A DNA stretch of 24,000 nt from an uncultured Clostridia bacterium (GTDB lineage Bacteria > Bacillota > Clostridia > Christensenellales > UBA1242): NCBI GenBank assembly GCA_944376905.1, contig CALWEA010000002.1, forward strand, positions 48,655-72,654, given 5' to 3'. The notes under the pieces were generated by a model that saw only the letters and a program-made list of their open reading frames with translations, searched no databases and was not told where the DNA came from. Position numbers and translations under genes: made by a program. Within the stretch, counting starts at the first letter, position 1; each line of letters starts with the position of its first letter. Of this stretch, positions 2-22,119 are shown piece by piece.

Positions 2-1534
2 TCTGTTAATATATCATCAACAGGACAACCACTTTTATCAAATAATGACATAAATCTTGATGAAAATAAAACAGTAATAAGAGATAAAGAAGAAAATTGT
101 AAAATTGATAATGTTAATATAATGAACAACAGTAATTTAAGCAATAATTTGATATCAAACGATAAACAAACTTCAAGTGATTTGCAAAATTTAAAAAATG
201 AAGAAAAGACTAATCAGGAAAATAATCAAATTATAACAACTGATTCATCAATACATATAGAAGATGTTTTTGAAAATAAAACAGAAAATGCAATTGTTCA
301 TCAAAATTCTTTTTTGGGAATGCCTAATACAAGCCTTAAAATTGGTCAAGAAGATTCAATAAATGCATTAAACAATCAAATAAACTTATTTGACAATCAA
401 GAAAATAATTATATAAAAAAACCTTTTAATATTGACAAAGAATTGGCGTATGTCAAAACTGAAAATAAAAGTTTTACTGACGGATATAAAAATCAATCAA
501 AATTATTAAATGACGCAGTTTTACTTAAAAATAATAAAATTCAACCGACAAATTCATTTGACAATCAATCAAATGCTGATGTTGAAAATGATAATAAGGA
601 ATTAATTTATCAAAATATTGACCAATTTGAAAATGTATTAAATAAAAATAGTTTAATAAATGAAAATATTGTTTTAAGTGATAATAACTTAAAAGAAAAT
701 AAAGATGATGGGGTTTTTATAAATTCCCCTACACCAAATTCTTTAAAGCAAGAAAATTTAAATAATGAGTCAGAAAATATTTTATTTCAAAATGAATATG
801 ATAATGGTATTTTTATAACAGAAAAATATTCACCTGATGAATTCCCTAAGGTTAAAAAAATAAATGTAATACATCTAGAAGACAAAAATAATAATTCAAT
901 AGAATTTGACAAAAACCAGATAGAAAGTGGTTATACTGAAAAAATAAATGAATTATATAATAAAAGCAATCAAGTAAATGAAAAAGATTTTGAAAATGAT
1001 GTTACTGTTGATTCTTATGAAAAACTACAAGATTATTATAATAAAATAAATGTTAAGTTTAAAACCTATCCTAACGAGTTAAATAATCATAATGAAAATA
1101 TCATTACCACTTCTCAAAGTTCTAATAAGATGGCATTTAAAAAATATTTATATTTATTTGCGTTTGTTTTTATTGAAACATTAATATGTTATTTTGCTTT
1201 TTCAAATTTTGATTTAACTATTAATTATTCATTTTTATACATTATATTACCTTTAATGTTTTTAATTTTACCTGCATATCATTTATTTCTCATATTAACA
1301 AAAAAAGAAGAATATATTTCAGAAATTAAATTAAATTCATTTTGGATTGATTTAATGTTATTCCTTGTTGGTATTGTTTTACTTTATTCTTTAAACATGC
1401 TTTTAGGAATGACATACTTAAACATTACACAATATGCAACTACTTTTATATACCCTTCTATCTTATTATTAAACATTTTTGTAAATTATGGATTGAATTT
1501 TATAGTTTACAAAAATTTAAAGATAAAAAGATAA
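2..1534 (+). CDS. Asn-rich low-complexity protein with a C-terminal four-helix membrane domain; 5' end runs off the window
   Basis: The ORF track gives 122..1534. Translating the same frame upstream by hand shows no stop back to nt 2 (SVNISSTGQPLLSNNDINLDENKTVIRDKEENCKIDNVNI-MNNSN...), so the gene probably starts left of the window. About 340 aa are N/Q/E/K-rich. Four hydrophobic segments follow (YLYLFAFVFIETLICYFAF, FLYIILPLMFLILPAYHLFLIL, WIDLMLFLVGIVLLYSLNMLLG, FIYPSILLLNIFVNYGLNFIV). No family recognised. Confidence 0.6.
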   Translation, partial: SVNISSTGQPLLSNNDINLDENKTVIRDKEENCKIDNVNIMNNSNLSNNLISNDKQTSSDLQNLKNEEKTNQENNQIITTDSSIHIEDVFENKTENAIVHQNSFLGMPNTSLKIGQEDSINALNNQINLFDNQENNYIKKPFNIDKELAYVKTENKSFTDGYKNQSKLLNDAVLLKNNKIQPTNSFDNQSNADVENDNKELIYQNIDQFENVLNKNSLINENIVLSDNNLKENKDDGVFINSPTPNSLKQENLNNESENILFQNEYDNGIFITEKYSPDEFPKVKKINVIHLEDKNNNSIEFDKNQIESGYTEKINELYNKSNQVNEKDFENDVTVDSYEKLQDYYNKINVKFKTYPNELNNHNENIITTSQSSNKMAFKKYLYLFAFVFIETLICYFAFSNFDLTINYSFLYIILPLMFLILPAYHLFLILTKKEEYISEIKLNSFWIDLMLFLVGIVLLYSLNMLLGMTYLNITQYATTFIYPSILLLNIFVNYGLNFIVYKNLKIKR

Positions 1535-4175: not shown

Positions 4176-4457
4176 TTACATACAACGTTCTGTATCTTGA
4201 AATTTTTTTATTTTTTTATTGTATAAAGGATTATAATTTTTTAATCTTTGACACTTAATAATAGAATCAGTTATTAAACTAAAATCTAAAAATCCATTAT
4301 TTTCGACATTTTCTTCAATATTTTTTTTATCATCATATTCAAAAGAAGCACTTGCTTTAATATTTGCGGATAACAATCTATAATTATCATTTCCTGTTTG
4401 TGCATAAAGATTATCTAATATATCAATAATATTAAAAGGATTACTTTCTATATTCAT
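4176..4457 (-). CDS. Small hypothetical protein in the era-recO slot
   Basis: The first codon of the ORF-track start (4463) is TTG. I prefer ATG at 4457 (MNIESNPF...), which has AAAGGAGG 9 nt upstream. Acidic, soluble, no motif recognised with certainty. Its position matches the small yqzL-type ORF of Bacillus (weak inference). Confidence 0.55.
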   Translation of the reverse strand: MNIESNPFNIIDILDNLYAQTGNDNYRLLSANIKASASFEYDDKKNIEENVENNGFLDFSLITDSIIKCQRLKNYNPLYNKKIKKFQDTERCM

Positions 4458-4503
4458 ATGCAAAAACCTCCTTTAATATTATATGCGCTTTTCTTATAAA
4501 TAT

Positions 4504-6057: not shown

Positions 6058-7197
6058 TTACAAAACTCTTTCAACCGTAATAACATATTGAATATTTATA
6101 ATATCGTTAGTTTGATTAATTATATTGTAATTTTCGCTCAATATTATATCATTTTTTAATAATTTTTGTAAAGTGTTTTCTTGACATTTTTTTAAAATAT
6201 CTTCTTTATAGTCTTGAAACATTTTTGTTATTTTTTTTGTTTTAATTTCTTTATATGTTATAGTTGAAATTGTTATTGGCAATAAAACATTTTTTAGTTT
6301 TGTTTGAGTTTGTGTTGTTTCATAATTTTTATAAATAATGTCTTTTTCTTGATTAAATAAATTGACCCCACACAATGAGATGTTTTTTATTGTTATTTCA
6401 TTACCTGTATAATATTTTTCAATTTGATTTTCATAATGGGTGTATTGTGTTTCAATCCATATTTCGGCATTAATTTTTGCACTGGCTTCAATACATTTTT
6501 TATTGTTTAAACTATCGTAATAATATGCAAATACTAAGACATCACCTTTTTTAAACAAACTTCCAGGTTTAACATTTAATGTTCCGCTTATTAATTCTAT
6601 ATTTTTAATTCTACCATTATATTCAGCTACAATATTTTTATACTTGTTATTATCTAAAGAATCACTATTTGCTGTTTCTATTTTTTCTTTTATATTTATT
6701 ATTAATGTTGAACCTTTTTCAATAACGCTAACCATACTTATTTCGTTAAAATTGGCAAGAAGTATTTTTTCTAAATTTTCGTTATTTATTGAATTTTTAG
6801 AAGAAAAACAACCAATTTTATTATTATTTAAAAATTCTAAAATAGTGTTTGAAGAAATATTTTGATTTCCAATTATATCTATGCGTAGTATAAAATTATT
6901 AGATATAAATAAAAATGCTGAAAAAATCAATAATCCCAAAACTATACCAACACTAGATAATATTTTATTTATAAATTTATTTAACCCTATTTTTTTTTTG
7001 TATATAATTTTAAAATTATTGCTATCTAAATTTTTTTTAACAATTTTTATATCTTTTGTTAAAATTTTAAATATGCTTATAGAATAAGAAAGTCTTTTAA
7101 AATCAAAAATTTCAACTCCCAAATTATTTAGTTTATTAAAAAACTTTTCTTGATTTAGACCTTCAATTTTTATTTCTATTAATGATTGAAATTTCAT
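6058..7197 (-). CDS. yqfD: Sporulation protein YqfD-like
   Basis: About 380 aa with a single TM segment after ~80 aa (ILSSVGIVLGLLIFSAFLFISNNFIL). The start overlaps the stop of the preceding yqfC-like gene by 1 nt. The yqfC-yqfD pairing and size match the Bacillus/Clostridium sporulation pair. Confidence 0.7.
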   Translation of the reverse strand: MKFQSLIEIKIEGLNQEKFFNKLNNLGVEIFDFKRLSYSISIFKILTKDIKIVKKNLDSNNFKIIYKKKIGLNKFINKILSSVGIVLGLLIFSAFLFISNNFILRIDIIGNQNISSNTILEFLNNNKIGCFSSKNSINNENLEKILLANFNEISMVSVIEKGSTLIINIKEKIETANSDSLDNNKYKNIVAEYNGRIKNIELISGTLNVKPGSLFKKGDVLVFAYYYDSLNNKKCIEASAKINAEIWIETQYTHYENQIEKYYTGNEITIKNISLCGVNLFNQEKDIIYKNYETTQTQTKLKNVLLPITISTITYKEIKTKKITKMFQDYKEDILKKCQENTLQKLLKNDIILSENYNIINQTNDIINIQYVITVERVL

Positions 7198-9534: not shown

Positions 9535-10218
9535 TTATAATTCAAAAGATTGTGATTTTGAATTAGAAAATGTTTTAGAAGAATCGATTACTAAAACTTG
9601 GTTTGTATTGTTTATGGTTTGAGGCGACAATTGAAAAGAAGTTAAAAGTTTTTCGCAAGTCTTTTTAATAATAAATAAATTATATTTCAACTCTTCAGGA
9701 CAATTAGGAGATTGTAACATTTTCATTAAATTATTTGAAAAAATATTATATATTCTATAATTAAAACTCAAAGTTTTAAACAAAGTTGTTTTTATATAAT
9801 CTTCTAAATCTAATGTCACATTGTAATTGTTGTTTTTATTTATAATGTTTTGTAAAATTTTATTTTTTTCCACAAATAATAATATTTTATCTAAAATATT
9901 TAAACTATAAAATAAGATTGGGTTAATATTATATAATTTATCTAAAATTTGCTGATGTGTCATTTTTTCATTTTTTTCATTCACTTGGTATTTTGACAGT
10001 GCATCTAAATATATATCTAAAAATGTAAAAGAACTAAAGGGTCTTTCGCAAAAAGGTATAGTATCCTCTTTATTAACAAAGACCTGTATGTATTTGCCTT
10101 TATTTTTATTATTTATTAAAAGAAAATAGCATTCTTTCAAATTTATATCAATCCCCAATCTTTTAGAGTGGTCATTTTTGTTTATAACGTCATTTATATC
10201 TAATATATCTTGTTTCAT
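9535..10218 (-). CDS. Hypothetical protein (orphan, 227 aa, soluble)
   Basis: Long uninterrupted ORF co-oriented with recN, with a weak RBS (TAGGA). No TM segment and no motif I can recognise. It occupies the position directly downstream of recN. Confidence 0.55.
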   Translation of the reverse strand: MKQDILDINDVINKNDHSKRLGIDINLKECYFLLINNKNKGKYIQVFVNKEDTIPFCERPFSSFTFLDIYLDALSKYQVNEKNEKMTHQQILDKLYNINPILFYSLNILDKILLFVEKNKILQNIINKNNNYNVTLDLEDYIKTTLFKTLSFNYRIYNIFSNNLMKMLQSPNCPEELKYNLFIIKKTCEKLLTSFQLSPQTINNTNQVLVIDSSKTFSNSKSQSFEL

Positions 10219-12792: not shown

Positions 12793-12848
12793 CAAATTAA
12801 GTTATTTTTGATTATTATACATTAAAATTTATAATTATGCAAGTATTA

Positions 12849-12866
12849 ATTGTATATTTATGCAAC
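12849..12866. promoter_or_regulatory. ARG-box-like palindrome (site B)
   Basis: atTGTATatttATGCAac has half-sites TGTAT/ATGCA around a 4-nt AT core. It shares the string tgtatattta with 12763-12772, next to site A. Confidence 0.35.
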
Positions 12867-12940
12867 TCAAAATTTATAAAAATAAAAATAATATTTTTTT
12901 ATTCAAAATAAATTTATAATTATATGTTTTTTTCATAAAT

Positions 12941-12977
12941 ATAAAAAAATAAAACCACTATTAAATTTAGTGATTTT
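12941..12977 (-). terminator. Putative intrinsic terminator overlapping the stop of the OapA-like gene
   Basis: Minus strand reads AAAAUCACUA-aauuuaa-UAGUGGUUUU (one mismatch), followed by a U-rich tract (plus A-run 12943-12949). Confidence 0.45.
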
Positions 12978-13824
12978 TTGTTATATGATATTTGTTATTG
13001 CTCATTATTGTTTTCATTGATATTAATTTTAATTTCTTTTTTTCTTCATAGTTTAAATTTTTATCTTGCTTAATCTCTTGGTCTTTTATAGAATTGTTCT
13101 TTTTGCATTCAAAATTATTTTTTTCATTATCCAAATCATATTTTTTTCGTTTTGATTTTTGGTTTTTGTTATATTTCTTCCTTGAAAAAATACTTAAAAT
13201 TTTACCCATAAACAAAACAACTTTTGTCGCATTGTTTGTTGCGTATTGTTTAAACATTGCCTTACCGCCAATTGTCAAACCAGCTATAACTGCAGAAACT
13301 AGAGAAGCAATAATAATTGATAATGCAGTTGGCGTATTATTATTAACTAAGTATGCTAATACACTCGCGCCCCCTGCCCCACTTAAAACACCACATACAT
13401 CACCAACAACATCTGCACAAAGAGAGGCAATTTTTGCTGAATTTTTTATTAAAAATAGTCCTTCCTTTCCACCTTTAACTTTTCTGGCAGACATAGATTT
13501 AAAGGGCGATTCGTCACAAGCTAAAACAGCGACACCAATCATATCGGTTATAACAGCAATTGATATAAAAATTAAAACCATTAATATAGCGAGAATTATA
13601 CCAGTTCCAGACATAAATAATTCACTTAGAATACCAAAAAACATAGAAAGAGCGAATGCTAGAAAAAATATTTTTACAGTCCATTTCCAATAAGCTTCTT
13701 TTTTATTATGTTCTTTCTTTTTAATTAATTTTTTTGATTTTACATTTAAATTATTATTTAATGTTTCATTTTTATTTTCATCATACGTTTTTGATTGCTC
13801 TTTATTATCTTTATTTTGATTCAT
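12967..13824 (-). CDS. Four-TM membrane protein with Lys/Asn-rich tails; candidate OLE-associated protein OapA
   Basis: Start re-called to ATG 13824 (MNQNKDNKEQ...), because the track extension to 13887 runs into the RNA gene. Four hydrophobic helices: IFFLAFALSMFFGILSELF, GIILAILMVLIFISIAVITDMIGVAVLA, SLCADVVGDVCGVLSGAGGASVLAYL, LSIIIASLVSAVIAGLTIGG. It lies immediately downstream of, and co-oriented with, the structured RNA. That is the arrangement described for OapA, but the family call comes from topology and context only. Confidence 0.55.
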   Translation of the reverse strand: MNQNKDNKEQSKTYDENKNETLNNNLNVKSKKLIKKKEHNKKEAYWKWTVKIFFLAFALSMFFGILSELFMSGTGIILAILMVLIFISIAVITDMIGVAVLACDESPFKSMSARKVKGGKEGLFLIKNSAKIASLCADVVGDVCGVLSGAGGASVLAYLVNNNTPTALSIIIASLVSAVIAGLTIGGKAMFKQYATNNATKVVLFMGKILSIFSRKKYNKNQKSKRKKYDLDNEKNNFECKKNNSIKDQEIKQDKNLNYEEKKKLKLISMKTIMSNNKYHITKNH

Positions 13825-13878
13825 ATATTTAAATAAATAATACCTTTTAAAATAAAATTTATTGATTTTAAAAAAAAA

Positions 13879-14445
13879 CGAAGGCAACGCACTTAGTAAA
13901 CCTTGCAGCTTAGGTTCGGTAGGATTTCCCTATTTTGCACTTTACCGTTACCAGTAAAGCAGTTTCCTTTTACGCAAAACTTACACCGAATCGCCACTTA
14001 GACCGCACTATAATCCCAAGCACGCCAATCATCATTATGATAACAGTCTAGAAGATTTCCTTAACGACTAAGATTACTTATAGTTCCTTTTGCAAATATG
14101 ATTTCAAAAGTCTATTTAAAAAAAACAAGGCCAATGTTTTTTTCAACATAACAACTTTTTCCCAACATATCCACTCAGAGCAGGCTACACTACACATAAC
14201 TTTGCGCCATATGTAGGTTTCTATCCTAAAAAGTAAAATTATTTCTCTTTTCACTTTTTTAGGTCTCCACGAAAACCGGATTAAAATTGTATGCCATTAC
14301 AATCATCCGATAATCTTAACTCCCAGCACAAACCCCAATTTGGGCAAAAGAAGCTTGCACAAGGAACTTCACAGTTGTGCCCTTTAGCGCTTTTTTCATC
14401 GCCCTCTAAGCAATTTTCATCGACTAGAATACTGCACCTTCGCAA
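13879..14445 (-). ncRNA. Large structured non-coding RNA, candidate OLE (ornate, large, extremophilic) RNA
   Basis: ORF-free G+C island: 23/60 and 27/60 G+C in 13921-13980 and 13981-14040, versus 8/60 in spacer 14521-14580. Its own promoter lies at 14451-14479. Terminal pairing: CGAAGG+UGCAG (14442-14432) with CUGCA (13908-13904) and CCUUCG (13884-13879). Several internal hairpins are present, and one (14190-14216) needs a G.U pair that exists only in minus-strand sense. The context xseA-xseB-RNA-4TM protein matches the OLE locus. Confidence 0.65.
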
Positions 14446-14450
14446 TAATT

Positions 14451-14479
14451 ATTATATCATAAATTATAAAAAAAAACAA
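14451..14479 (-). promoter_or_regulatory. Sigma-A-type promoter driving the structured RNA
   Basis: Minus strand reads TTGTTT (14479-14474), a 17-nt spacer, then TATAAT (14456-14451). The predicted start near 14444-14446 falls a few nt before the 5' arm of the closing helix. Confidence 0.55.
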
Positions 14480-14649
14480 GTGTAGTTATAAAAATTATTT
14501 AACAAATTACATATATAACTAAATTTACTAAATAAGCAATAAAATAAATTAGCAATTAACTAAAATATTATATGGTTAAATTATTATAATTTGTAATAAG
14601 ATAAATAAGATAAAATTAATATTTATATATTTATTTAAATTTTAATTAG

Positions 14650-14937
14650 TTAATTTTTAAAAATTTGTTCAATATTATTTTTAATAATTGTAATCTTCCC
14701 CTCTATTGTATTAAAGGAATTATTGCAAATTTTTAACAATTTTTCACCTTCTTCATATAATTTTATAACATTTTCTAAATCATTATTACCATTTTCCAAT
14801 TTTTCTATTATACTATCAAGCTTTCGAGATGCTTCTTCATAGCTTAACGTTTGTTCACTTTCTATATCATTGCAATTTTGCCTTGGTTTATTGTTGATAG
14901 ATTTATTATCATTTAACTTATTTTTTTTATTTTCCAT
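14650..14937 (-). CDS. xseB: Exodeoxyribonuclease VII small subunit
   Basis: Core LSYEEASRKLDSIIEKLENGNNDLENVIKLYEEGEKLLKICNNSFNTIEGKI is the XseB helical hairpin pattern, preceded by a ~30-aa N/K-rich extension. It starts 10 nt after the xseA stop. Confidence 0.88.
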   Translation of the reverse strand: MENKKNKLNDNKSINNKPRQNCNDIESEQTLSYEEASRKLDSIIEKLENGNNDLENVIKLYEEGEKLLKICNNSFNTIEGKITIIKNNIEQIFKN

Positions 14938-14947
14938 TGCTCCCTCA

Positions 14948-16054
14948 CTACTCTAATACTTTTGCACTAACACAACCATCAAGAAAACAAATATTAATTT
15001 TATCATCTTTATTAAGTTGTTTTTTTGAAATTATAGTTTTATTATTTTTATTGATTTTAACATATCCCATTTTTAAAATTTTTTCTGGAGATAAATTATC
15101 CAATTTTGCAGATTTTAAAGATAATGCATGTTTAAAATTTTGCAGAACCAAATCAATTATTTTGTTTAATTTTATTTTTTTGACATTTATTTCATAAATT
15201 TTATTTGCTAAAATATTTTCTCCTGTTAAAATAAGTTTTTTAGCTTTATTTATTAAATTTGTTTTTTTAACTAAAATATCTTCAACTGCCAATTCAGCCG
15301 CAGCACTTGGTGTAGGAGCTCTTAAATCTGCGACAAAATCTAAAATTGTGTAATCTGTTTCATGCCCAATTGCAGAAATAATAAATTTATTACTGCTAAC
15401 AACTTTTCTAGCCAAAACTTCAGAATTAAAACAATTTAAATCTTCGAATGACCCACCGCCTCTTGCAATTATTATTAAATCTACATTATAATCCTCAAAA
15501 AATTCTATTCCCTCACTTACTTCAAAATCACTTCCATCTCCCTGTACCTTAACAGGATAAACAACTAAATCAATAAAAGGATTTCTTCTTTTTGAAATTG
15601 TTATAATATCTTCAATAACCGCTCCTGTTTCAGATGTTATAACCCCAATTCTTTTGATAGATGATGGAAACGGTTTTTTTCTACTTTCATCGAAAAGACC
15701 TTCCTTTTGAAGCCTATTTTTTGTTTCTAAAAACTTTTGATACAAATCACCCTGTCCTAAAAAAGAAACATTGTTAACAATAAAAGAAAGCTTTCCTCCT
15801 TTTACATAAAATTTAGGAGTACCTTTAACAATTATATTGTCGCCATTTTTAATTAAAAGACATTTGCTAGATTCAAAACATATACACGGCAAAATACAAA
15901 ACTCATCTTTTAAATCAAAATAAGAAATACCTCGAATTGTTTTTAATCCGGAAATTTCTCCTTTAACAGAAATATTATACAACATTTCTTCTGCATCAAA
16001 AATTTGTTTAATGTAATTTCCTAACTGACTAACAGTTATGACAATTTCTTGCAT
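14948..16054 (-). CDS. xseA: Exodeoxyribonuclease VII large subunit
   Basis: N-terminal OB-fold region (VSQLGNYIKQIFD...ISVKGEISGLK) and the catalytic-domain hallmark IIARGGGSFEDL. At 368 aa it is on the short side for the family. Confidence 0.9.
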   Translation of the reverse strand: MQEIVITVSQLGNYIKQIFDAEEMLYNISVKGEISGLKTIRGISYFDLKDEFCILPCICFESSKCLLIKNGDNIIVKGTPKFYVKGGKLSFIVNNVSFLGQGDLYQKFLETKNRLQKEGLFDESRKKPFPSSIKRIGVITSETGAVIEDIITISKRRNPFIDLVVYPVKVQGDGSDFEVSEGIEFFEDYNVDLIIIARGGGSFEDLNCFNSEVLARKVVSSNKFIISAIGHETDYTILDFVADLRAPTPSAAAELAVEDILVKKTNLINKAKKLILTGENILANKIYEINVKKIKLNKIIDLVLQNFKHALSLKSAKLDNLSPEKILKMGYVKINKNNKTIISKKQLNKDDKINICFLDGCVSAKVLE

Positions 16055-17120: not shown

Positions 17121-17594
17121 TTATTCAACAGGTATTATTTTTATGCTAGATAATTGATAGTCTGTTTGTTCGGTAATAACAGCAACAACTTGTGCAACTT
17201 CAGAATTTGTTAATTCTTTTGACTTAACTATAACATTAATGTAGTTTGGAGATGTTGTTATTATTGCATCAGTAAATCCCAAACCTTTAACTAAATATTC
17301 TAAAGCCAACTCATTTTCCATTTGTTCTATTAACGCTAATTTTTGAGAATTTGCATTAGATTTTGCTGTTTCGTCAGAATTTTCACTTTGAATAATAGAA
17401 TCATAATATAAAATTGCTTGGTCTCTTGTTGAACTTCTATCAGTTCTATAAGCATCAAAATAATTGTAGTTAGTTTGCATTTGTGTACTCGTCTCAATGG
17501 TTTTATTGTTTAATGCAATATTTAAATATCCTGTAACTCCTAATAAAATAATCATTGCAGATAAAATTATAATTTTTGTTTTTTTCTTTAACAT
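17121..17594 (-). CDS. spoIIIAH: Stage III sporulation protein AH
   Basis: N-terminal TM anchor (IIILSAMIILLGVTGYL) and a C-terminal YscJ/FliF-like region (GFTDAIITTSPNYINVIVKS...). Last gene of the spoIIIA cluster. Strong RBS AAAGGAGAGGG. Confidence 0.8.
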   Translation of the reverse strand: MLKKKTKIIILSAMIILLGVTGYLNIALNNKTIETSTQMQTNYNYFDAYRTDRSSTRDQAILYYDSIIQSENSDETAKSNANSQKLALIEQMENELALEYLVKGLGFTDAIITTSPNYINVIVKSKELTNSEVAQVVAVITEQTDYQLSSIKIIPVE

Positions 17595-17732
17595 ATTCCC
17601 TCTCCTTTCATTACAATAATTTATTTATGTTTAATCTAAATTATTACTAAATTTTTAAAATTTTTTTTATTTTTTTGTTTCTTTATTTTCTAAATTAAAA
17701 AAAATATTTTGTAATTTTATTTTTTTCATTAA

Positions 17733-18164
17733 TTATGAACTGTTACCTCCAACCAAAACTTCTATATTAGATGTTGATAAATTTAAAAGAGCTTCAACAG
17801 CTTTAACAATTTCCAATTTAACCCAAACATTTTTTGCACCTTCAGCAACAACTATAACAGATTTAATATTAGGTATACTATCTTCTTTTTCATCAATATT
17901 GTTCTCTGTCATTATCATAACATCAACATTTCCTGCTCCATCAATTTTTGATAATATATTAGTTAACTTTTCCTCAACTTCTGTAGTATAAATGGAAATG
18001 GCGGACAAATTATTGTTTTCACTTTTGTTGTTTGTAAAAGAATTAGATGTTGAAGATGAAAAATAAATTAATAAAATAATTAAAGCAAATAAAACGGCGA
18101 GAATGATTTCTATATGCTTTATACTTTTTAATTTTTTAAATAAATTAGCAAAAAAATTATTCAT
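17733..18164 (-). CDS. spoIIIAG: Stage III sporulation protein AG
   Basis: N-terminal TM helix, then the family core GAGNVDVMIM...IKSVIVVAEGAKNVWVKLEIVKAVEALLNLSTSNIEVLV. Overlaps the spoIIIAF stop by 8 nt. Confidence 0.82.
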   Translation of the reverse strand: MNNFFANLFKKLKSIKHIEIILAVLFALIILLIYFSSSTSNSFTNNKSENNNLSAISIYTTEVEEKLTNILSKIDGAGNVDVMIMTENNIDEKEDSIPNIKSVIVVAEGAKNVWVKLEIVKAVEALLNLSTSNIEVLVGGNSS

Positions 18165-18648
18165 AAAAAACTATTTTTTCCTCCTCAATGTTAATTTTTC
18201 GCAAAACAATTTTTAAAATGCTTGTCTTTATATCTATATGTGAAATATTTTCATCTATTACACATTTTTTTAAATCTATTGAAACTTGTTCTATATTCAA
18301 TTCTTCTTCAAAAATATTTGCCTTTAAACCAACTTGAACACCACTAATTCCAAACTCTTCTATATCATTTTCTAGTTCTTTTTGTAATTTATTTAATATT
18401 TTTTGATTAACACTTGATAAAAATTCTTCTTGAATAGTTATATTATTATTTTCAAAAATGTCTTCTAATTTAATATCTTTTTTTGATAAAAAAGAAACTA
18501 TAGGCGAAAGAATAACTATAACAATAACAAATGCGAAAATATTTTTAATAAATTTTGAAGTTGAGCCATTGGGCATGACTAAATCGACAATAATCGAAAG
18601 AACTACTACCCCAACAATTCCTAAAATCCACGCAGAAATAGCAGACAT
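18157..18648 (-). CDS. spoIIIAF: Stage III sporulation protein AF
   Basis: Two N-terminal TM helices (ISAWILGIVGVVVLSIIVDLVMP, FAFVIVIVILSPIVSFL) followed by a soluble domain. Position within the operon. Confidence 0.8.
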   Translation of the reverse strand: MSAISAWILGIVGVVVLSIIVDLVMPNGSTSKFIKNIFAFVIVIVILSPIVSFLSKKDIKLEDIFENNNITIQEEFLSSVNQKILNKLQKELENDIEEFGISGVQVGLKANIFEEELNIEQVSIDLKKCVIDENISHIDIKTSILKIVLRKINIEEEKIVFYE

Positions 18649-18679
18649 TTTTATTCTCCTTTCATCAAATTAAATTACA

Positions 18680-20011
18680 TTAAATTCCAACACTCGTACA
18701 CATTATTAAACCTACAAAAATAACATACATAAAAGCAACACCTATAATCATTACTATTGGCATTATAAAAATTTTTGAAATAGAAGAAATAAAATTTGAA
18801 ATACGATTATCAGAAAGAGGTTCTAAAAGCGCACCTGTAAATTTTAAAGCAAGCATAAATAAAACTAATTGTAAAAGCGGTATTAAAATAGTGGAAAATA
18901 AAAGTAAAAGGCCTGATGCTCCAATTGCATTTTTTATTAAAACACAACTTGCTAAAATAACATTTAATCCTTCACTTAAATAACCACCTAAAATAGGGAC
19001 ATAAGTACTAAGAGAAAATTTAGCAGTTTTAAAAGAAATACTATCAATAGAACCTGCGGTTATACCTTTTATTGCTAAAAATCCCATAAAAATTGTAAAA
19101 ACTATTCCTATAATCCATTTAAATAATGTATTTAAAAAACTTGACAACTTATCTAATCTAACTGAATTAGAGAGATTAGAAACAATAGAAAAAACTAATG
19201 CAAATATAAAAATTGGCATAAGAATGGTTGTGAAAATCTTCGTAACTATACTTGTTAAAACAACAACAGCTGGTTGATAAACAGCAACTGAAACAGTTCC
19301 CCCCATTGCAGTTAAAAGAGTTAAAAGTAAAGGAAATATAATTTCCATTTGTGTAACAATAAGACTTAAAGTATTAGATGTTAAAGTTATCATTTGGGTT
19401 GCTACTGAAGCAACAATAACAATAATAACACCATAACAAACAAAATGTATTATATCCCCTATCGATTGAGAATTGCCTTTAAAATCAGAAAGAAGTCCTG
19501 CCAAAACAGCAATTGCTATAATACTTGCAATAAATGGCAAAATTGCTAAAAGTTCATCAAAAATTAAGTTTAAAATGGCTTGTAATAAAGATGATGAATT
19601 TTCGCTAAATTCACCAGAAATAATTTTATTTAATTTATCTAAAATGCTACTTGACCCAAATATTTCTTTTTGTTCATCAGTTAAATTATTTAAAAAATTT
19701 TCTAATGCAGATAAATCTAAGTCTGCCAATTGGTCATTTACAGTATCTTTTAACTCTTCTTCAATATCTTCTAGATTTTCTTTTTCTTCATCACTTAACT
19801 CCTTGTCCATCTCATTTTCAAGATTGTTTATTAAAGAATTTATTTCATTTTGATTATTAAGTTCTCCATAAACTGAAATCGAAGGTGAATTTAAAATAGA
19901 GGGTATTAAAACAAAAATAAAAGCAATAATTAAAAAGATATATCTTTTTAAAATTTTTCTTTTATTTTTATTTTTTTTATAATTTTTTAAAAATAACTTT
20001 TTAAAAATCAT
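18680..20011 (-). CDS. spoIIIAE: Stage III sporulation protein AE (polytopic membrane component)
   Basis: Signal/anchor sequence, an acidic extracytoplasmic segment, then about 7-8 TM helices. ATGA overlap with spoIIIAD. Position within the operon. Confidence 0.85.
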   Translation of the reverse strand: MIFKKLFLKNYKKNKNKRKILKRYIFLIIAFIFVLIPSILNSPSISVYGELNNQNEINSLINNLENEMDKELSDEEKENLEDIEEELKDTVNDQLADLDLSALENFLNNLTDEQKEIFGSSSILDKLNKIISGEFSENSSSLLQAILNLIFDELLAILPFIASIIAIAVLAGLLSDFKGNSQSIGDIIHFVCYGVIIVIVASVATQMITLTSNTLSLIVTQMEIIFPLLLTLLTAMGGTVSVAVYQPAVVVLTSIVTKIFTTILMPIFIFALVFSIVSNLSNSVRLDKLSSFLNTLFKWIIGIVFTIFMGFLAIKGITAGSIDSISFKTAKFSLSTYVPILGGYLSEGLNVILASCVLIKNAIGASGLLLLFSTILIPLLQLVLFMLALKFTGALLEPLSDNRISNFISSISKIFIMPIVMIIGVAFMYVIFVGLIMCTSVGI

Positions 20012-20394
20012 GGTAAAATCCCCACAATAATTTCAATAACATTTGTCAAGATAGGCAAAGCCATAATAAGAATGATAATTTTTCCAGCAAGTAAAATTTT
20101 ATTAGCAAGACTTGATGAACCAGAATCATTACAAATATTAGCAGTAAATTCTGTAAGATATCCTATACCAATAATTTTTAAAACAATAGAAAATAATCCT
20201 GGAGATAATTTTGTTTTTTCAACTATGTAATTTAAAACATCAAAAATTTGATTGATATAATCAACCAACATTAAAAGTATAACAACTCCCCCTGCCATAG
20301 TAACTAAACTTGCAAAATCAGGTTTAACTTGTTTGACAATAAGAGTTGCAACGCAAGTTAACAAAGCAATTGCAATAATTTTAAAAATATCCAA
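20008..20394 (-). CDS. spoIIIAD: Stage III sporulation protein AD
   Basis: A 128-aa four-TM protein with the conserved core LKIIGIGYLTEFTANICNDSG...LAGKIIILIMALPIL. Confidence 0.88.
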   Translation of the reverse strand: MDIFKIIAIALLTCVATLIVKQVKPDFASLVTMAGGVVILLMLVDYINQIFDVLNYIVEKTKLSPGLFSIVLKIIGIGYLTEFTANICNDSGSSSLANKILLAGKIIILIMALPILTNVIEIIVGILP

Positions 20395-20439
20395 ATTATA
20401 AACCCCATATGCAATTATTAAATTTTTTAATCTTATGTT

Positions 20440-20634
20440 TTAAAAATTAAACATGTCTTTAATACTGCTAAATAAATTTGTTATTAAATCTAACACCATT
20501 AATAAAACAATGATTAACCCCGCCAATGTTGCCATGGTTGCAATTTCATCTTTACCACTATGTTTTAAAACCTGGCCAACAACTGCGGTTAATATACCAA
20601 TTGCAGCAATTTTAAAAATAATTTCAACTCCCAT
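20440..20634 (-). CDS. spoIIIAC: Stage III sporulation protein AC
   Basis: Start re-called to ATG 20634 (MGVEIIFKIAAIGIL...), which has AGAGGTG 6 nt upstream. A 64-aa two-TM protein typical of SpoIIIAC. Confidence 0.88.
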   Translation of the reverse strand: MGVEIIFKIAAIGILTAVVGQVLKHSGKDEIATMATLAGLIIVLLMVLDLITNLFSSIKDMFNF

Positions 20635-20704
20635 AAAAACACCTCTACCCAAAATCATACTATATATAGTAAATATTTTAATTTTTGTTTTACTAGATAT
20701 TGTA

Positions 20705-21202
20705 TTATAATAATATTAAAGCAATGGCAAGTCCAAAAATAATACCTAATTTCAAATATAATGGTGCATATTTTTTTGCTTCTTGCTCTGCATTAGAATA
20801 TAATTTATTTAATTCTTCTTTTTGGCTATTTAATTGTTTTGTTTGATTAAAAACATCAAATTTACCTAAACTTAAAAAAAATATTAATATCATATTTTTT
20901 TCTTCATCGTTGAGTATTTTTATATCTTTAAACAAATCTTCTTTTGTAACCTCATTGTTTATTTCTAAACATTTAATAAAATTATTAATTAATTTTTTTA
21001 TTTCTTTATTATTTGTTTCTTCATGAAAACTTTTTAAAATTGAAATTAATTTTGCTTGCGAAAAATTTATTTCTAAATTTATTTTTTCAAATAAAAATAA
21101 AAGTGTTCTAAAAAATTTTAACCTATTGTTATAATATAATGAAAGTCCATATCCAAGATATCCGCAAATAATTACAATAATAATTAATATAATATATTTC
21201 AA
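20705..21202 (-). CDS. spoIIIAB: Stage III sporulation protein AB
   Basis: 165 aa with N- and C-terminal TM helices flanking a helical cytoplasmic domain. Start overlaps the spoIIIAA stop by 4 nt. Position within the operon. Confidence 0.8.
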   Translation of the reverse strand: MKYIILIIIVIICGYLGYGLSLYYNNRLKFFRTLLFLFEKINLEINFSQAKLISILKSFHEETNNKEIKKLINNFIKCLEINNEVTKEDLFKDIKILNDEEKNMILIFFLSLGKFDVFNQTKQLNSQKEELNKLYSNAEQEAKKYAPLYLKLGIIFGLAIALILL

Positions 21203-22119
21203 ACCATCTGCCCTCCTCCAATAAAAATTTTTTGCATTGAATGATTGTAAACGGCTTCTATAACGCCAGGTTTAACTCCTTTTTTTAAAACAACATATCT
21301 ATCGAATAAATTTTCTATTTTGACAAATTCTTTTTTTTGCTTTAATTGATTTATTGAATCAGCATGAATTGTTGCTAAAATTTTAACCCCACAATTTACG
21401 GCGTAATTAATTGCATCAAAATCTTCACTTCCCCCCAATTCATCAGTTACTATTAAATGTGGATTCATTGCCCTAATTCCTTGCAAAAACCCAGTATGTT
21501 TATCTGAAAAAGATATAATATCACAAAATTTACCAACTTCAAGTTTATTATTTTTGCCGGCAATTTCCCCTCTTTCATCAATTATTAAAATATTATAGAA
21601 TAAATTTCTTTCAGTTAATTGATAAATAAAATCTCTAATAAAAGTTGTTTTACCTTGTCCAGGGGGAGAAATTATTAATATGTTTTTTAAACCGTTTTCA
21701 TCAATAAGGTGTTTAAATATAGGAATAGAACAATTTTTAATTTCATGAGGTATTCTTATGTTAACACTCGTAAAATTAGTTATAGTTTTTATTTTTTGAT
21801 TTTCTGTTATTATAGTTCCACAAACACCAATTCTTTCACCTCCATCTAGAACCAAAAAACCTTGTTTTAATTCTTCATTAATTGAATAGATAGAAAATTC
21901 ACTAGCTTTATAAATTATGTCTTCAACCATTTTTTTTGATGCTTTAAGACCTTTTTCATAAGATAAAACAAATCCATTAGAGTCAAAAAATTTAACTTGT
22001 CCATCAACATTTAATACAATTGGTTTATTTTCTCTAAATCTTATTTCATTAATTTTATTAAAACCAATTTTTTGAGAAAGAATTTTATAAATATTTGCAT
22101 CTAAAATTTTATTTAGCAT
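21199..22119 (-). CDS. spoIIIAA: Stage III sporulation protein AA (secretion-type ATPase)
   Basis: Walker A SPPGQGKTT, Walker B-like LIVTDELG, about 306 aa. First gene of an eight-gene spoIIIA-ordered cluster. Confidence 0.9.
   Translation of the reverse strand: MLNKILDANIYKILSQKIGFNKINEIRFRENKPIVLNVDGQVKFFDSNGFVLSYEKGLKASKKMVEDIIYKASEFSIYSINEELKQGFLVLDGGERIGVCGTIITENQKIKTITNFTSVNIRIPHEIKNCSIPIFKHLIDENGLKNILIISPPGQGKTTFIRDFIYQLTERNLFYNILIIDERGEIAGKNNKLEVGKFCDIISFSDKHTGFLQGIRAMNPHLIVTDELGGSEDFDAINYAVNCGVKILATIHADSINQLKQKKEFVKIENLFDRYVVLKKGVKPGVIEAVYNHSMQKIFIGGGQMV

Follow-up and report, generated by a model that had tools for sequence, protein, structure and literature searches.

OLE RNAs are among the largest and best-conserved bacterial RNAs with a biochemical function that is still unknown. 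Their function and architecture have been described in several studies (PMC12265935, PMC7936274, PMC9723947, PMC12054373, PMC12286853), and a membrane-spanning arrangement has been proposed, with the biochemical activity remaining unknown (PMC12265935). The OLE dimer resolved by cryo-electron microscopy (cryo-EM) is held together by A-rich P4 loops, by loop-loop (kissing) pairing between P5.1 and P6.1 and by a self-complementary P9 loop (PMC12265935, PMC12286853). In Halalkalibacterium halodurans, the GNRA loop and a single-nucleotide bulge of helix P13 form the high-affinity primary site for the protein OapB, and the P14.1 loop is a weak secondary site (PMC7936274). Reduced forms of OLE occur in uncultured gut bacteria. 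Variant 1 (Fernando & Breaker 2024) is missing the OapB-site nucleotides at P13 and has shorter P7-P9 helices; it occurs most often in TANB77, an uncultured gut clade, and its reduced-genome hosts largely lack OapB and OapC (PMC11332333). Variant 2, found in the RF39 clade, is without P7 and P8. Here we describe an ole locus in a 24,000-nucleotide (nt) stretch of DNA, referred to as the window, from an uncultured Clostridia bacterium (assembly GCA_944376905.1, contig CALWEA010000002.1, positions 48,655 to 72,654). The minus strand of the window almost certainly carries a genuine OLE RNA together with OapA, representing the ole gene of an uncultured, very AT-rich, spore-forming gut Clostridia bacterium. 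This degree of confidence applies to the OLE RNA and OapA, and the model of expression given below is less certain. Both the family and its P13-less variant are already known and the find is therefore not new.

Scanning the whole window with Rfam 15 at gathering thresholds returned OLE as the sole matching family. The OLE model (RF01071) matches minus-strand positions 14456-13865, scoring 373 bits compared to a gathering score of 50 (E = 1.9e-106). The match spans 592 nt and covers model positions 1-616 of 616 without truncation. An initial annotation made from the sequence alone had proposed an OLE RNA at 13879-14445 on the minus strand based on size, structure and synteny, and had suggested a scan with the OLE model and the full Rfam library. 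The class call was right and the proposed interval corresponds to the RNA proper, which begins at its predicted start and ends with the terminal helix. Measured from the predicted start to a run of uridines (U) at its 3' end, the RNA proper extends from ~14444 to 13870 and is ~575 nt long, in line with the ~600 nt expected of OLE and with the 577 nt reported for Clostridium acetobutylicum (PMC12286853). When the consensus structure is threaded on the window, 136 of 149 pairs are standard. The covariance model thus places the RNA in the same family as the full-length OLE RNAs of H. halodurans, C. acetobutylicum and C. botulinum, with which it shares helices P1-P12.2, P14, P14.1 and P15, the conserved dimer-contact loops and an oapA gene immediately downstream. 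In contrast to the hosts of these full-length RNAs, the organism studied here would be a mesophilic gut anaerobe with a G+C content of 23.7%. Full-length OLE also possesses an anti-Shine-Dalgarno mimic (CCUCC-like) in P6; none was noticed in P6 of the window RNA when the sequence was read by eye, with no formal test applied. ROOL and GOLLD are likewise large, highly structured, homo-oligomeric RNAs of unknown function, but they form cages instead of membrane-associated dimers (PMC12286853), and neither was matched in the window by the Rfam scan.

Related loci were identified through OapA. A homology search with the window protein yielded 594 relatives, 17 of which were aligned. With this 17-member alignment as the query, a scan of species-representative genomes identified 504 genomes that encode a relative. 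Every one of the best 80 loci of that scan comes from an uncultured Clostridia metagenome-assembled genome of animal or human gut origin. OLE hosts are anaerobic or extremophilic Bacillota, a description that these Clostridia relatives fit, and their gut habitat suggests that the host of the window is anaerobic. The set of loci compared consists of 84 loci with 10-kb flanks each; the P13 count was made on 70 of them and most RNA counts on 67. Using the window RNA as an nhmmer query, OLE was found directly upstream of an oapA homologue in 72 of the 84 loci. The window RNA is 99.3-99.8% identical to its counterparts in four same-species contigs (L001-L004) and shares 55-73% identity with those of other species.

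The multi-helix structure of the RNA is kept by compensatory change. Covariation was counted in a MAFFT alignment of 31 species, with pairs taken from the Rfam structure and from three helices unannotated in Rfam; as null controls, the 3' partners were slid or the sequences were shuffled 500 times. 87.9% of cells are paired in this alignment, compared to 40-45% with slid 3' partners. Changes on both sides are found for 95 of the 168 pairs, and the observed values were reached in none of the 500 shuffles. This covariation supports the consensus structure. The minimum free energy (MFE) of the RNA is -165.4 kcal/mol compared to -138.2 +/- 6.6 kcal/mol for dinucleotide shuffles (z = -4.15), and the MFE fold also joins the two RNA ends. 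The element has a G+C content of 38.1% compared to a window mean of 23.7%. This is above every sampled 567-nt stretch of the window (10-nt steps), the highest of which (37.7%) itself lies inside the element. The spacers flanking OLE at 14457-14649 and 13825-13878 are very AT-rich, with 10.4% and 5.6% G+C, respectively. The hand counts of G+C in the initial annotation (23/60 and 27/60 inside the element, 8/60 in a spacer) were exact.

All helices lie on the minus-strand transcript and are named according to published descriptions, with the names P1 and P2 taken, by text, from a domain assignment that groups P1, P2 and P10-P15 in one domain (PMC12265935). The terminal helix P1 is formed by CGAAGGU (14442-14436) and GCCUUCG (13885-13879). 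It is missing from the Rfam consensus annotation, is present in the MFE fold and is 98.1% paired, with five of seven pairs changed on both sides. The outer terminal helix CGAAGG/CCUUCG predicted initially is thus real. P2, with its 5' strand at 14424-14435, pairs GCAGU (14435-14431) with ACUGU (14047-14043) and CUAG (14427-14424) with CUAG (14051-14048); it is 100% paired, and a C-G pair has been replaced by U-A, without any mismatch, in 5 of the 31 aligned sequences and in 6 of a larger set of 67. Because GCAGU pairs with ACUGU, and CUGCA (13908-13904) with UGCGG (14007-14003, 97-98% paired), both strands of the inner terminal pairing that had also been proposed, UGCAG (14436-14432) with CUGCA, have better-supported partners. 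That inner pairing is 68% paired and no better than shuffles, 404 of 500 of which do as well, and was rejected.

The four internal hairpins of the initial annotation all correspond to consensus helices. The hairpin at 14225-14263 is P7, which has 17 consensus pairs, 15 of them standard, and many compensatory changes. P8 (14190-14216) has 13 consensus pairs, is 95.5% paired with six pairs changed on both sides, and contains three G.U pairs that fit a transcript of the minus strand. The 3' domain (13886-14026), traced by threading of the consensus, is closed by a long-range helix of 11 base pairs (14026-14016/13896-13886). It contains the helix 14007-14003/13908-13904 and the junction of P12.2 (13990-13985/13920-13915), P14 (13981-13974/13938-13931), P14.1 (13960-13939, with a GUAA loop at 13951-13948) and P15 (13930-13922). 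P14.1 represents the hairpin initially placed at 13937-13960, and P15 represents UAGGG-AAA-UCCUA at 13920-13932, whose inner three pairs are 99% paired. The 3' domain helices, numbers 19-24 of the count, have 99%, 98%, 100%, 89%, 84% and 99% of their cells paired in the 31 species. The window RNA and the four same-species contigs differ in just two respects. The P7 apical loop (14242-14247) varies by substitutions and by indels, and strain-level indels in L001-L004 are confined to it. The other differences are G-to-A changes at paired positions (14144), one of which converts a G.U to an A-U pair.

All loops that form contacts in the cryo-EM dimer are present in the window RNA. The P4 hairpin (14386-14403), placed by the Rfam alignment, has the A-rich loop GAAAAA (14397-14392). 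The P5/P5.1 stem (14320-14366; 20 pairs, 98% paired, seven changed on both sides) carries the loop GCCCA (14345-14341), which is invariant in the 31 species, and P6/P6.1 (14271-14315) carries the nearly invariant loop AUGGCA (14297-14292). Like P6/P6.1, the long P9 arm (14083-14181) was defined by consensus threading and covariation; its predicted apical loop UUGGCCU (14134-14128) contains the self-complementary sequence GGCC (14132-14129). Of 67 homologues, 61 have a self-complementary 4-mer in the predicted P9 loop, reading GGCC, GUAC, GCGC or ACGU. Switching of the 4-mer with retention of its self-complementarity is the pattern that a homodimer kissing loop would produce. In the k-turn region associated with OapC (J4a/5, J5/6 and P6), the UGAAG and GGGAG elements are present according to a mapping made from the published text, which left the C-helix unplaced. 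In this text-based mapping, the 5' position of the k-turn candidate varies between A, U, C and G against an invariant UUAAGA.

The window RNA departs from full-length OLE at P13. In the cmscan alignment, 19 model positions correspond to 0 nt in the window at site 13982-13983 on the minus strand, and the missing hairpin was recognised as P13 from where it would sit in the four-way junction P12.2/P13/P14/P15. Of 70 related loci, 62 likewise lack P13; the eight that have it, with GNRA loops, are more distant and mostly from Oscillospiraceae. The P13 GNRA hairpin that characterizes OLE is thus missing here, and the literature accepts RNAs of this kind as an in-family variant (PMC11332333). The P14.1 GUAA loop is retained. 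As P13 is deleted, the particle probably acts without high-affinity binding of OapB and would contain no tightly bound OapB. The initial structural account identified the class correctly but overlooked the absence of P13 and mis-paired the 5' UGCAG.

Judged by its sequence features, the window RNA fits variant 1. The OapB nucleotides of P13 are missing and the host is one of the uncultured low-G+C gut Clostridia known from metagenome assemblies. Its score also lies below typical full-length matches, with the caveat that the published score classes are based on that paper's own model and are not directly comparable with 373 bits. We compared the lengths of the P7, P8 and P9 segments with the Rfam consensus and with Oscillospiraceae relatives. 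They are 43, 28 and 86 nt long in the window compared to 47, 30 and 85 nt in the consensus and 64-157, 38-50 and 84-88 nt in the Oscillospiraceae. P7 and P8 are consequently shorter than in these relatives and P9 is not. Variant 2 is similar in being a reduced OLE of uncultured gut bacteria, but is ruled out for the window RNA by the presence of P7 and P8, both of which covary.

The gene following the RNA encodes a protein of the OapA family. oapA (12967-13824, minus strand, ATG at 13824) begins 45 nt downstream of the U-run and is translated into a 285 amino acid (aa) protein with four hydrophobic segments, as read from the sequence, and the DxxxD motif DVVGD. In the 17-member alignment, DMIGVA and DVxGDVCG are invariant. 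OapA is related to MpfA (PMC11332333), and its likeness to the MpfA/CorB/CNNM Mg2+ transporters consists of a weak, consistent similarity to the CNNM transmembrane domain. CNNM (PF01595) gives weak matches in 16 of the 17 alignment members with a best E of 5.3e-8; the match of the window OapA has an E of 0.004 and 17.3 bits, below the Pfam gathering score of 28.4. In contrast to the transporters, OapA represents the membrane domain alone, with DxxxD, and stays below the gathering score. A sequence profile search of the PDB with the OapA alignment gave no match and NCBIfam offered no useful OapA model. The window OapA has Lys/Asn-rich low-complexity tails, an N-terminal one of ~45 aa (13690-13824) and a C-terminal one of ~70 aa (12967-13180). 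At 285 aa it compares with ~200 aa in most relatives, and the length of the C-terminal tail varies between strains, with 265-276 aa called for the protein in L001-L004.

A putative sigma-A-type promoter, read from the sequence, is located at 14451-14479 on the minus strand. It consists of a -35 element TTGTTT (14479-14474), a 17-nt spacer and an extended -10 element TGaTATAAT (14459-14451). The promoter TTGTTT-17-TATAAT described initially is therefore present and additionally has a TG at 14459-14458. The predicted start at ~14445-14443 coincides with the first base of P1. When ~60 related loci are aligned on the first helix, TTG(ACA) and TGnTATAAT fall at constant distances, also in loci with G+C-rich flanks, and the position of the putative promoter is thus conserved across ~60 species. 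A consensus promoter scan of the window did not list it (the -35 element matches 3/6), and in DNA as AT-rich as this the number of promoter-like matches (13) does not exceed the 16.9 expected from shuffles. At the other end of the RNA, a U9 run (13878-13870) directly follows the 3' strand of P1 and represents a candidate transcript 3' end or attenuator. Loci tend not to combine an adjacent U-run with a separate hairpin terminator: of the 26 loci with an adjacent U-run (among 67), five contain such a terminator between OLE and oapA, compared to 23 of the 41 loci without an adjacent U-run (Fisher p = 0.0047, with crude criteria and kinship ignored). Transcription would start at ~14444 from the extended -10 promoter and most transcripts would stop at the U9 run abutting P1, with read-through feeding oapA and perhaps argR and recN. 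The apparent promoter of its own distinguishes this OLE from that of H. halodurans, for which one polycistronic transcript has been reported (PMC12265935).

Some relatives of the window OapA are encoded at loci where OLE was not detected. In seven loci with enough upstream sequence (L005, L006, L007, L053, L069, L075 and L081), no OLE was found within 4 kb of oapA by nhmmer, at the Rfam gathering score or at an Rfam E <= 0.1. In a neighbour-joining tree of RecN and ArgR, L005-L007 are the sister group of the window. The regions concerned are 3538-4639 in L005, around 4001 in L006 and 3611-4597 in L007. L005 and L007 have the same synteny as the window, with xseB followed by oapA after 50-190 nt. 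OapA proteins from OLE-less loci that are part of the 17-member alignment (P0009, which is L007, and P0015, whose locus is uncertain) keep every invariant residue. A tentative and rather doubtful possibility is that OLE is an autonomous transcription unit in this clade, with P1 and the U-run as intrinsic terminator or attenuator, and, separately, that it has truly been lost in L005-L007 with OapA kept. In such a unit, the conserved promoter would start transcription exactly at P1, the P1 stem would form only after the whole 575-nt RNA has been made, and completion of the fold would be coupled to the level of oapA through read-through.

The RNA might instead be chiefly a leader, a long structured 5' part of the oapA mRNA that controls oapA expression in cis, and not a stable trans-acting RNA. 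Its position would suit such a role: oapA begins too close to the U-run for a separate promoter to fit in between, the window yielded no local terminator hairpin, and OLE adjoins oapA in most of the loci compared. However, the separate hairpin terminators found in 23 of the 41 loci lacking an adjacent U-run are clear and lie between OLE and oapA, and the two genes are ~2 kb apart in L064. OLE has also been published as an abundant discrete RNA that binds OapA (PMC12265935), and with ~25% of its nucleotides conserved and more than 20 helices it far exceeds what a leader needs. We consider a leader function improbable.

OLE is missing from the corresponding junction in the closest relatives, L005-L007, and the P13 OapB site of the window RNA is gone, as might be expected of a decaying, non-functional relic that is about to disappear as it has from this junction in the sister clade. 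Against decay, stretches that are invariant across the family are almost all intact in the Rfam and 31-species alignments and the great majority of consensus pairs (136/149) are standard. The four strains of 99.3-99.8% identity differ by few changes, which are located in the P7 loop or are G-to-A at paired positions, and the P13 deletion is common to 62 loci that otherwise covary normally. A relic is therefore very improbable.

The initial annotation had noted the absence of a credible open reading frame (ORF) from the region, and this holds. The minus strand of the element contains ORFs of 54 aa (14445-14281) and 58 aa (14254-14078), and a 64-aa ORF is present on the plus strand. Both minus-strand ORFs are intact in only one of 67 homologues, the window itself, with a median length to the first stop of 1 aa for the 54-aa and 14 aa for the 58-aa ORF. 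The ORFs exist, but loss in 66 of 67 homologues rules out the two on the minus strand, substitutions track base-pairing and not codons, and the probability that the region codes for small proteins is negligible. An unclassified ~0.5-kb structured RNA resembling OLE merely in size and context, the fallback of the initial annotation, is excluded for practical purposes by the full-length RF01071 match at seven times the gathering score and by 55-73% identity with OLE loci found independently via OapA.

An OLE RNA with OapA is thus the preferred reading, and several points weigh against parts of it or against the model of its expression and function. Because the lengths of P7, P8 and P9 are close to those of the Rfam consensus, it is chiefly the P13 deletion that justifies the variant 1 label. 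Taken by itself, the promoter scan is not significant, and support for the promoter comes solely from cross-species comparison. No local hairpin terminator was found in a scan of 12800-15100, and P1 and the U-run may act as a terminator according to a scan that was crude and phylogeny-blind. The start, the end and the read-through of the transcript are likewise predictions. A sister clade without OLE at the junction yet with oapA would make OLE dispensable or movable in near relatives. Finally, the function in stress described below is extrapolated from a distant alkaliphile.

The genes surrounding the RNA and oapA were assigned by Pfam. Upstream of OLE are asp23 and, on the minus strand, nusB (16631-16218; NusB), xseA (16054-14948; Exonuc_VII_L) and xseB (14937-14650; Exonuc_VII_S). 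argR (12708-12253; Arg_repressor and Arg_repressor_C) and recN (12032-10314; SMC_N), also on the minus strand, are located downstream of oapA. The order nusB, xseA, xseB, RNA, four-transmembrane protein, argR and recN given by the initial annotation is thereby borne out. It is the commonest order in the clade, and argR has been listed in the ole gene cluster (PMC12265935). The synteny argument made from this order holds in outline, with the qualification that the locus is condensed: neither the xseB-OLE nor the oapA-argR interval contains a gene, which also distinguishes the window from full-length OLE loci. Some relatives contain extra DNA at these positions, with ~1.5 kb between xseB and OLE in L018, L022, L038, L045, L049, L051 and L054 and ~3.5 kb between oapA and argR in L071, L073, L078 and L084. 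As this DNA is absent here, the ole cluster of the window appears to be a condensed form. A literature search on the ispA/xseB context of ole found nothing relevant, and no tRNA or tmRNA genes were found in the window.

The window also encodes a complete spoIIIAA-AH operon (17121-22119, minus strand) and yqfD (6058-7197, minus strand), and yabP is called in same-species contigs. The presence of spoIIIAA-AH and yqfD indicates that the organism is a spore-former despite its G+C content of 23.7% and apparently condensed gene clusters. Three ORFs have no Pfam or NCBIfam match: 9535-10218 (minus strand, 227 aa), 122-1534 (plus strand, 470 aa) and 4176-4463 (minus strand, 95 aa). The 227-aa ORF, flanked by recN and rplM, is among the genes called in each of the four same-species contigs.

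Published work on OLE in H. halodurans and Clostridium allows us to infer how the particle might function in this organism. Two domains would form in the folded RNA, a 5' one comprising P3-P9 and another comprising P1, P2 and the 3' helices. The RNA would homodimerise through the A-rich loop of P4, the loops of P5.1 and P6.1 and the self-complementary loop of P9. OapA, a CNNM-like protein, would as a dimer hold the RNA at the membrane, and the resulting particle would aid in coping with stresses such as short-chain alcohols, cold, excess Mg2+ and poor carbon sources.

The window copy represents one more member of a family reported from ~2,800 genomes and belongs to a variant already described. 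The positionally conserved promoter, the U-run abutting P1 and the occurrence of OapA without adjacent OLE in the sister clade are new minor points that we regard as leads. The value of the locus is comparative, in that a very AT-rich, reduced gut lineage keeps every dimer-contact loop and drops the OapB site. If OLE has truly been lost in L005-L007, these genomes would represent a natural experiment for OLE-independent OapA function. The loss of the OapB site alone and the contrast with the sister clade, which keeps OapA but has no OLE at this junction, could help define the minimal OLE particle and separate the roles of OapA alone from those of OapA with its RNA.

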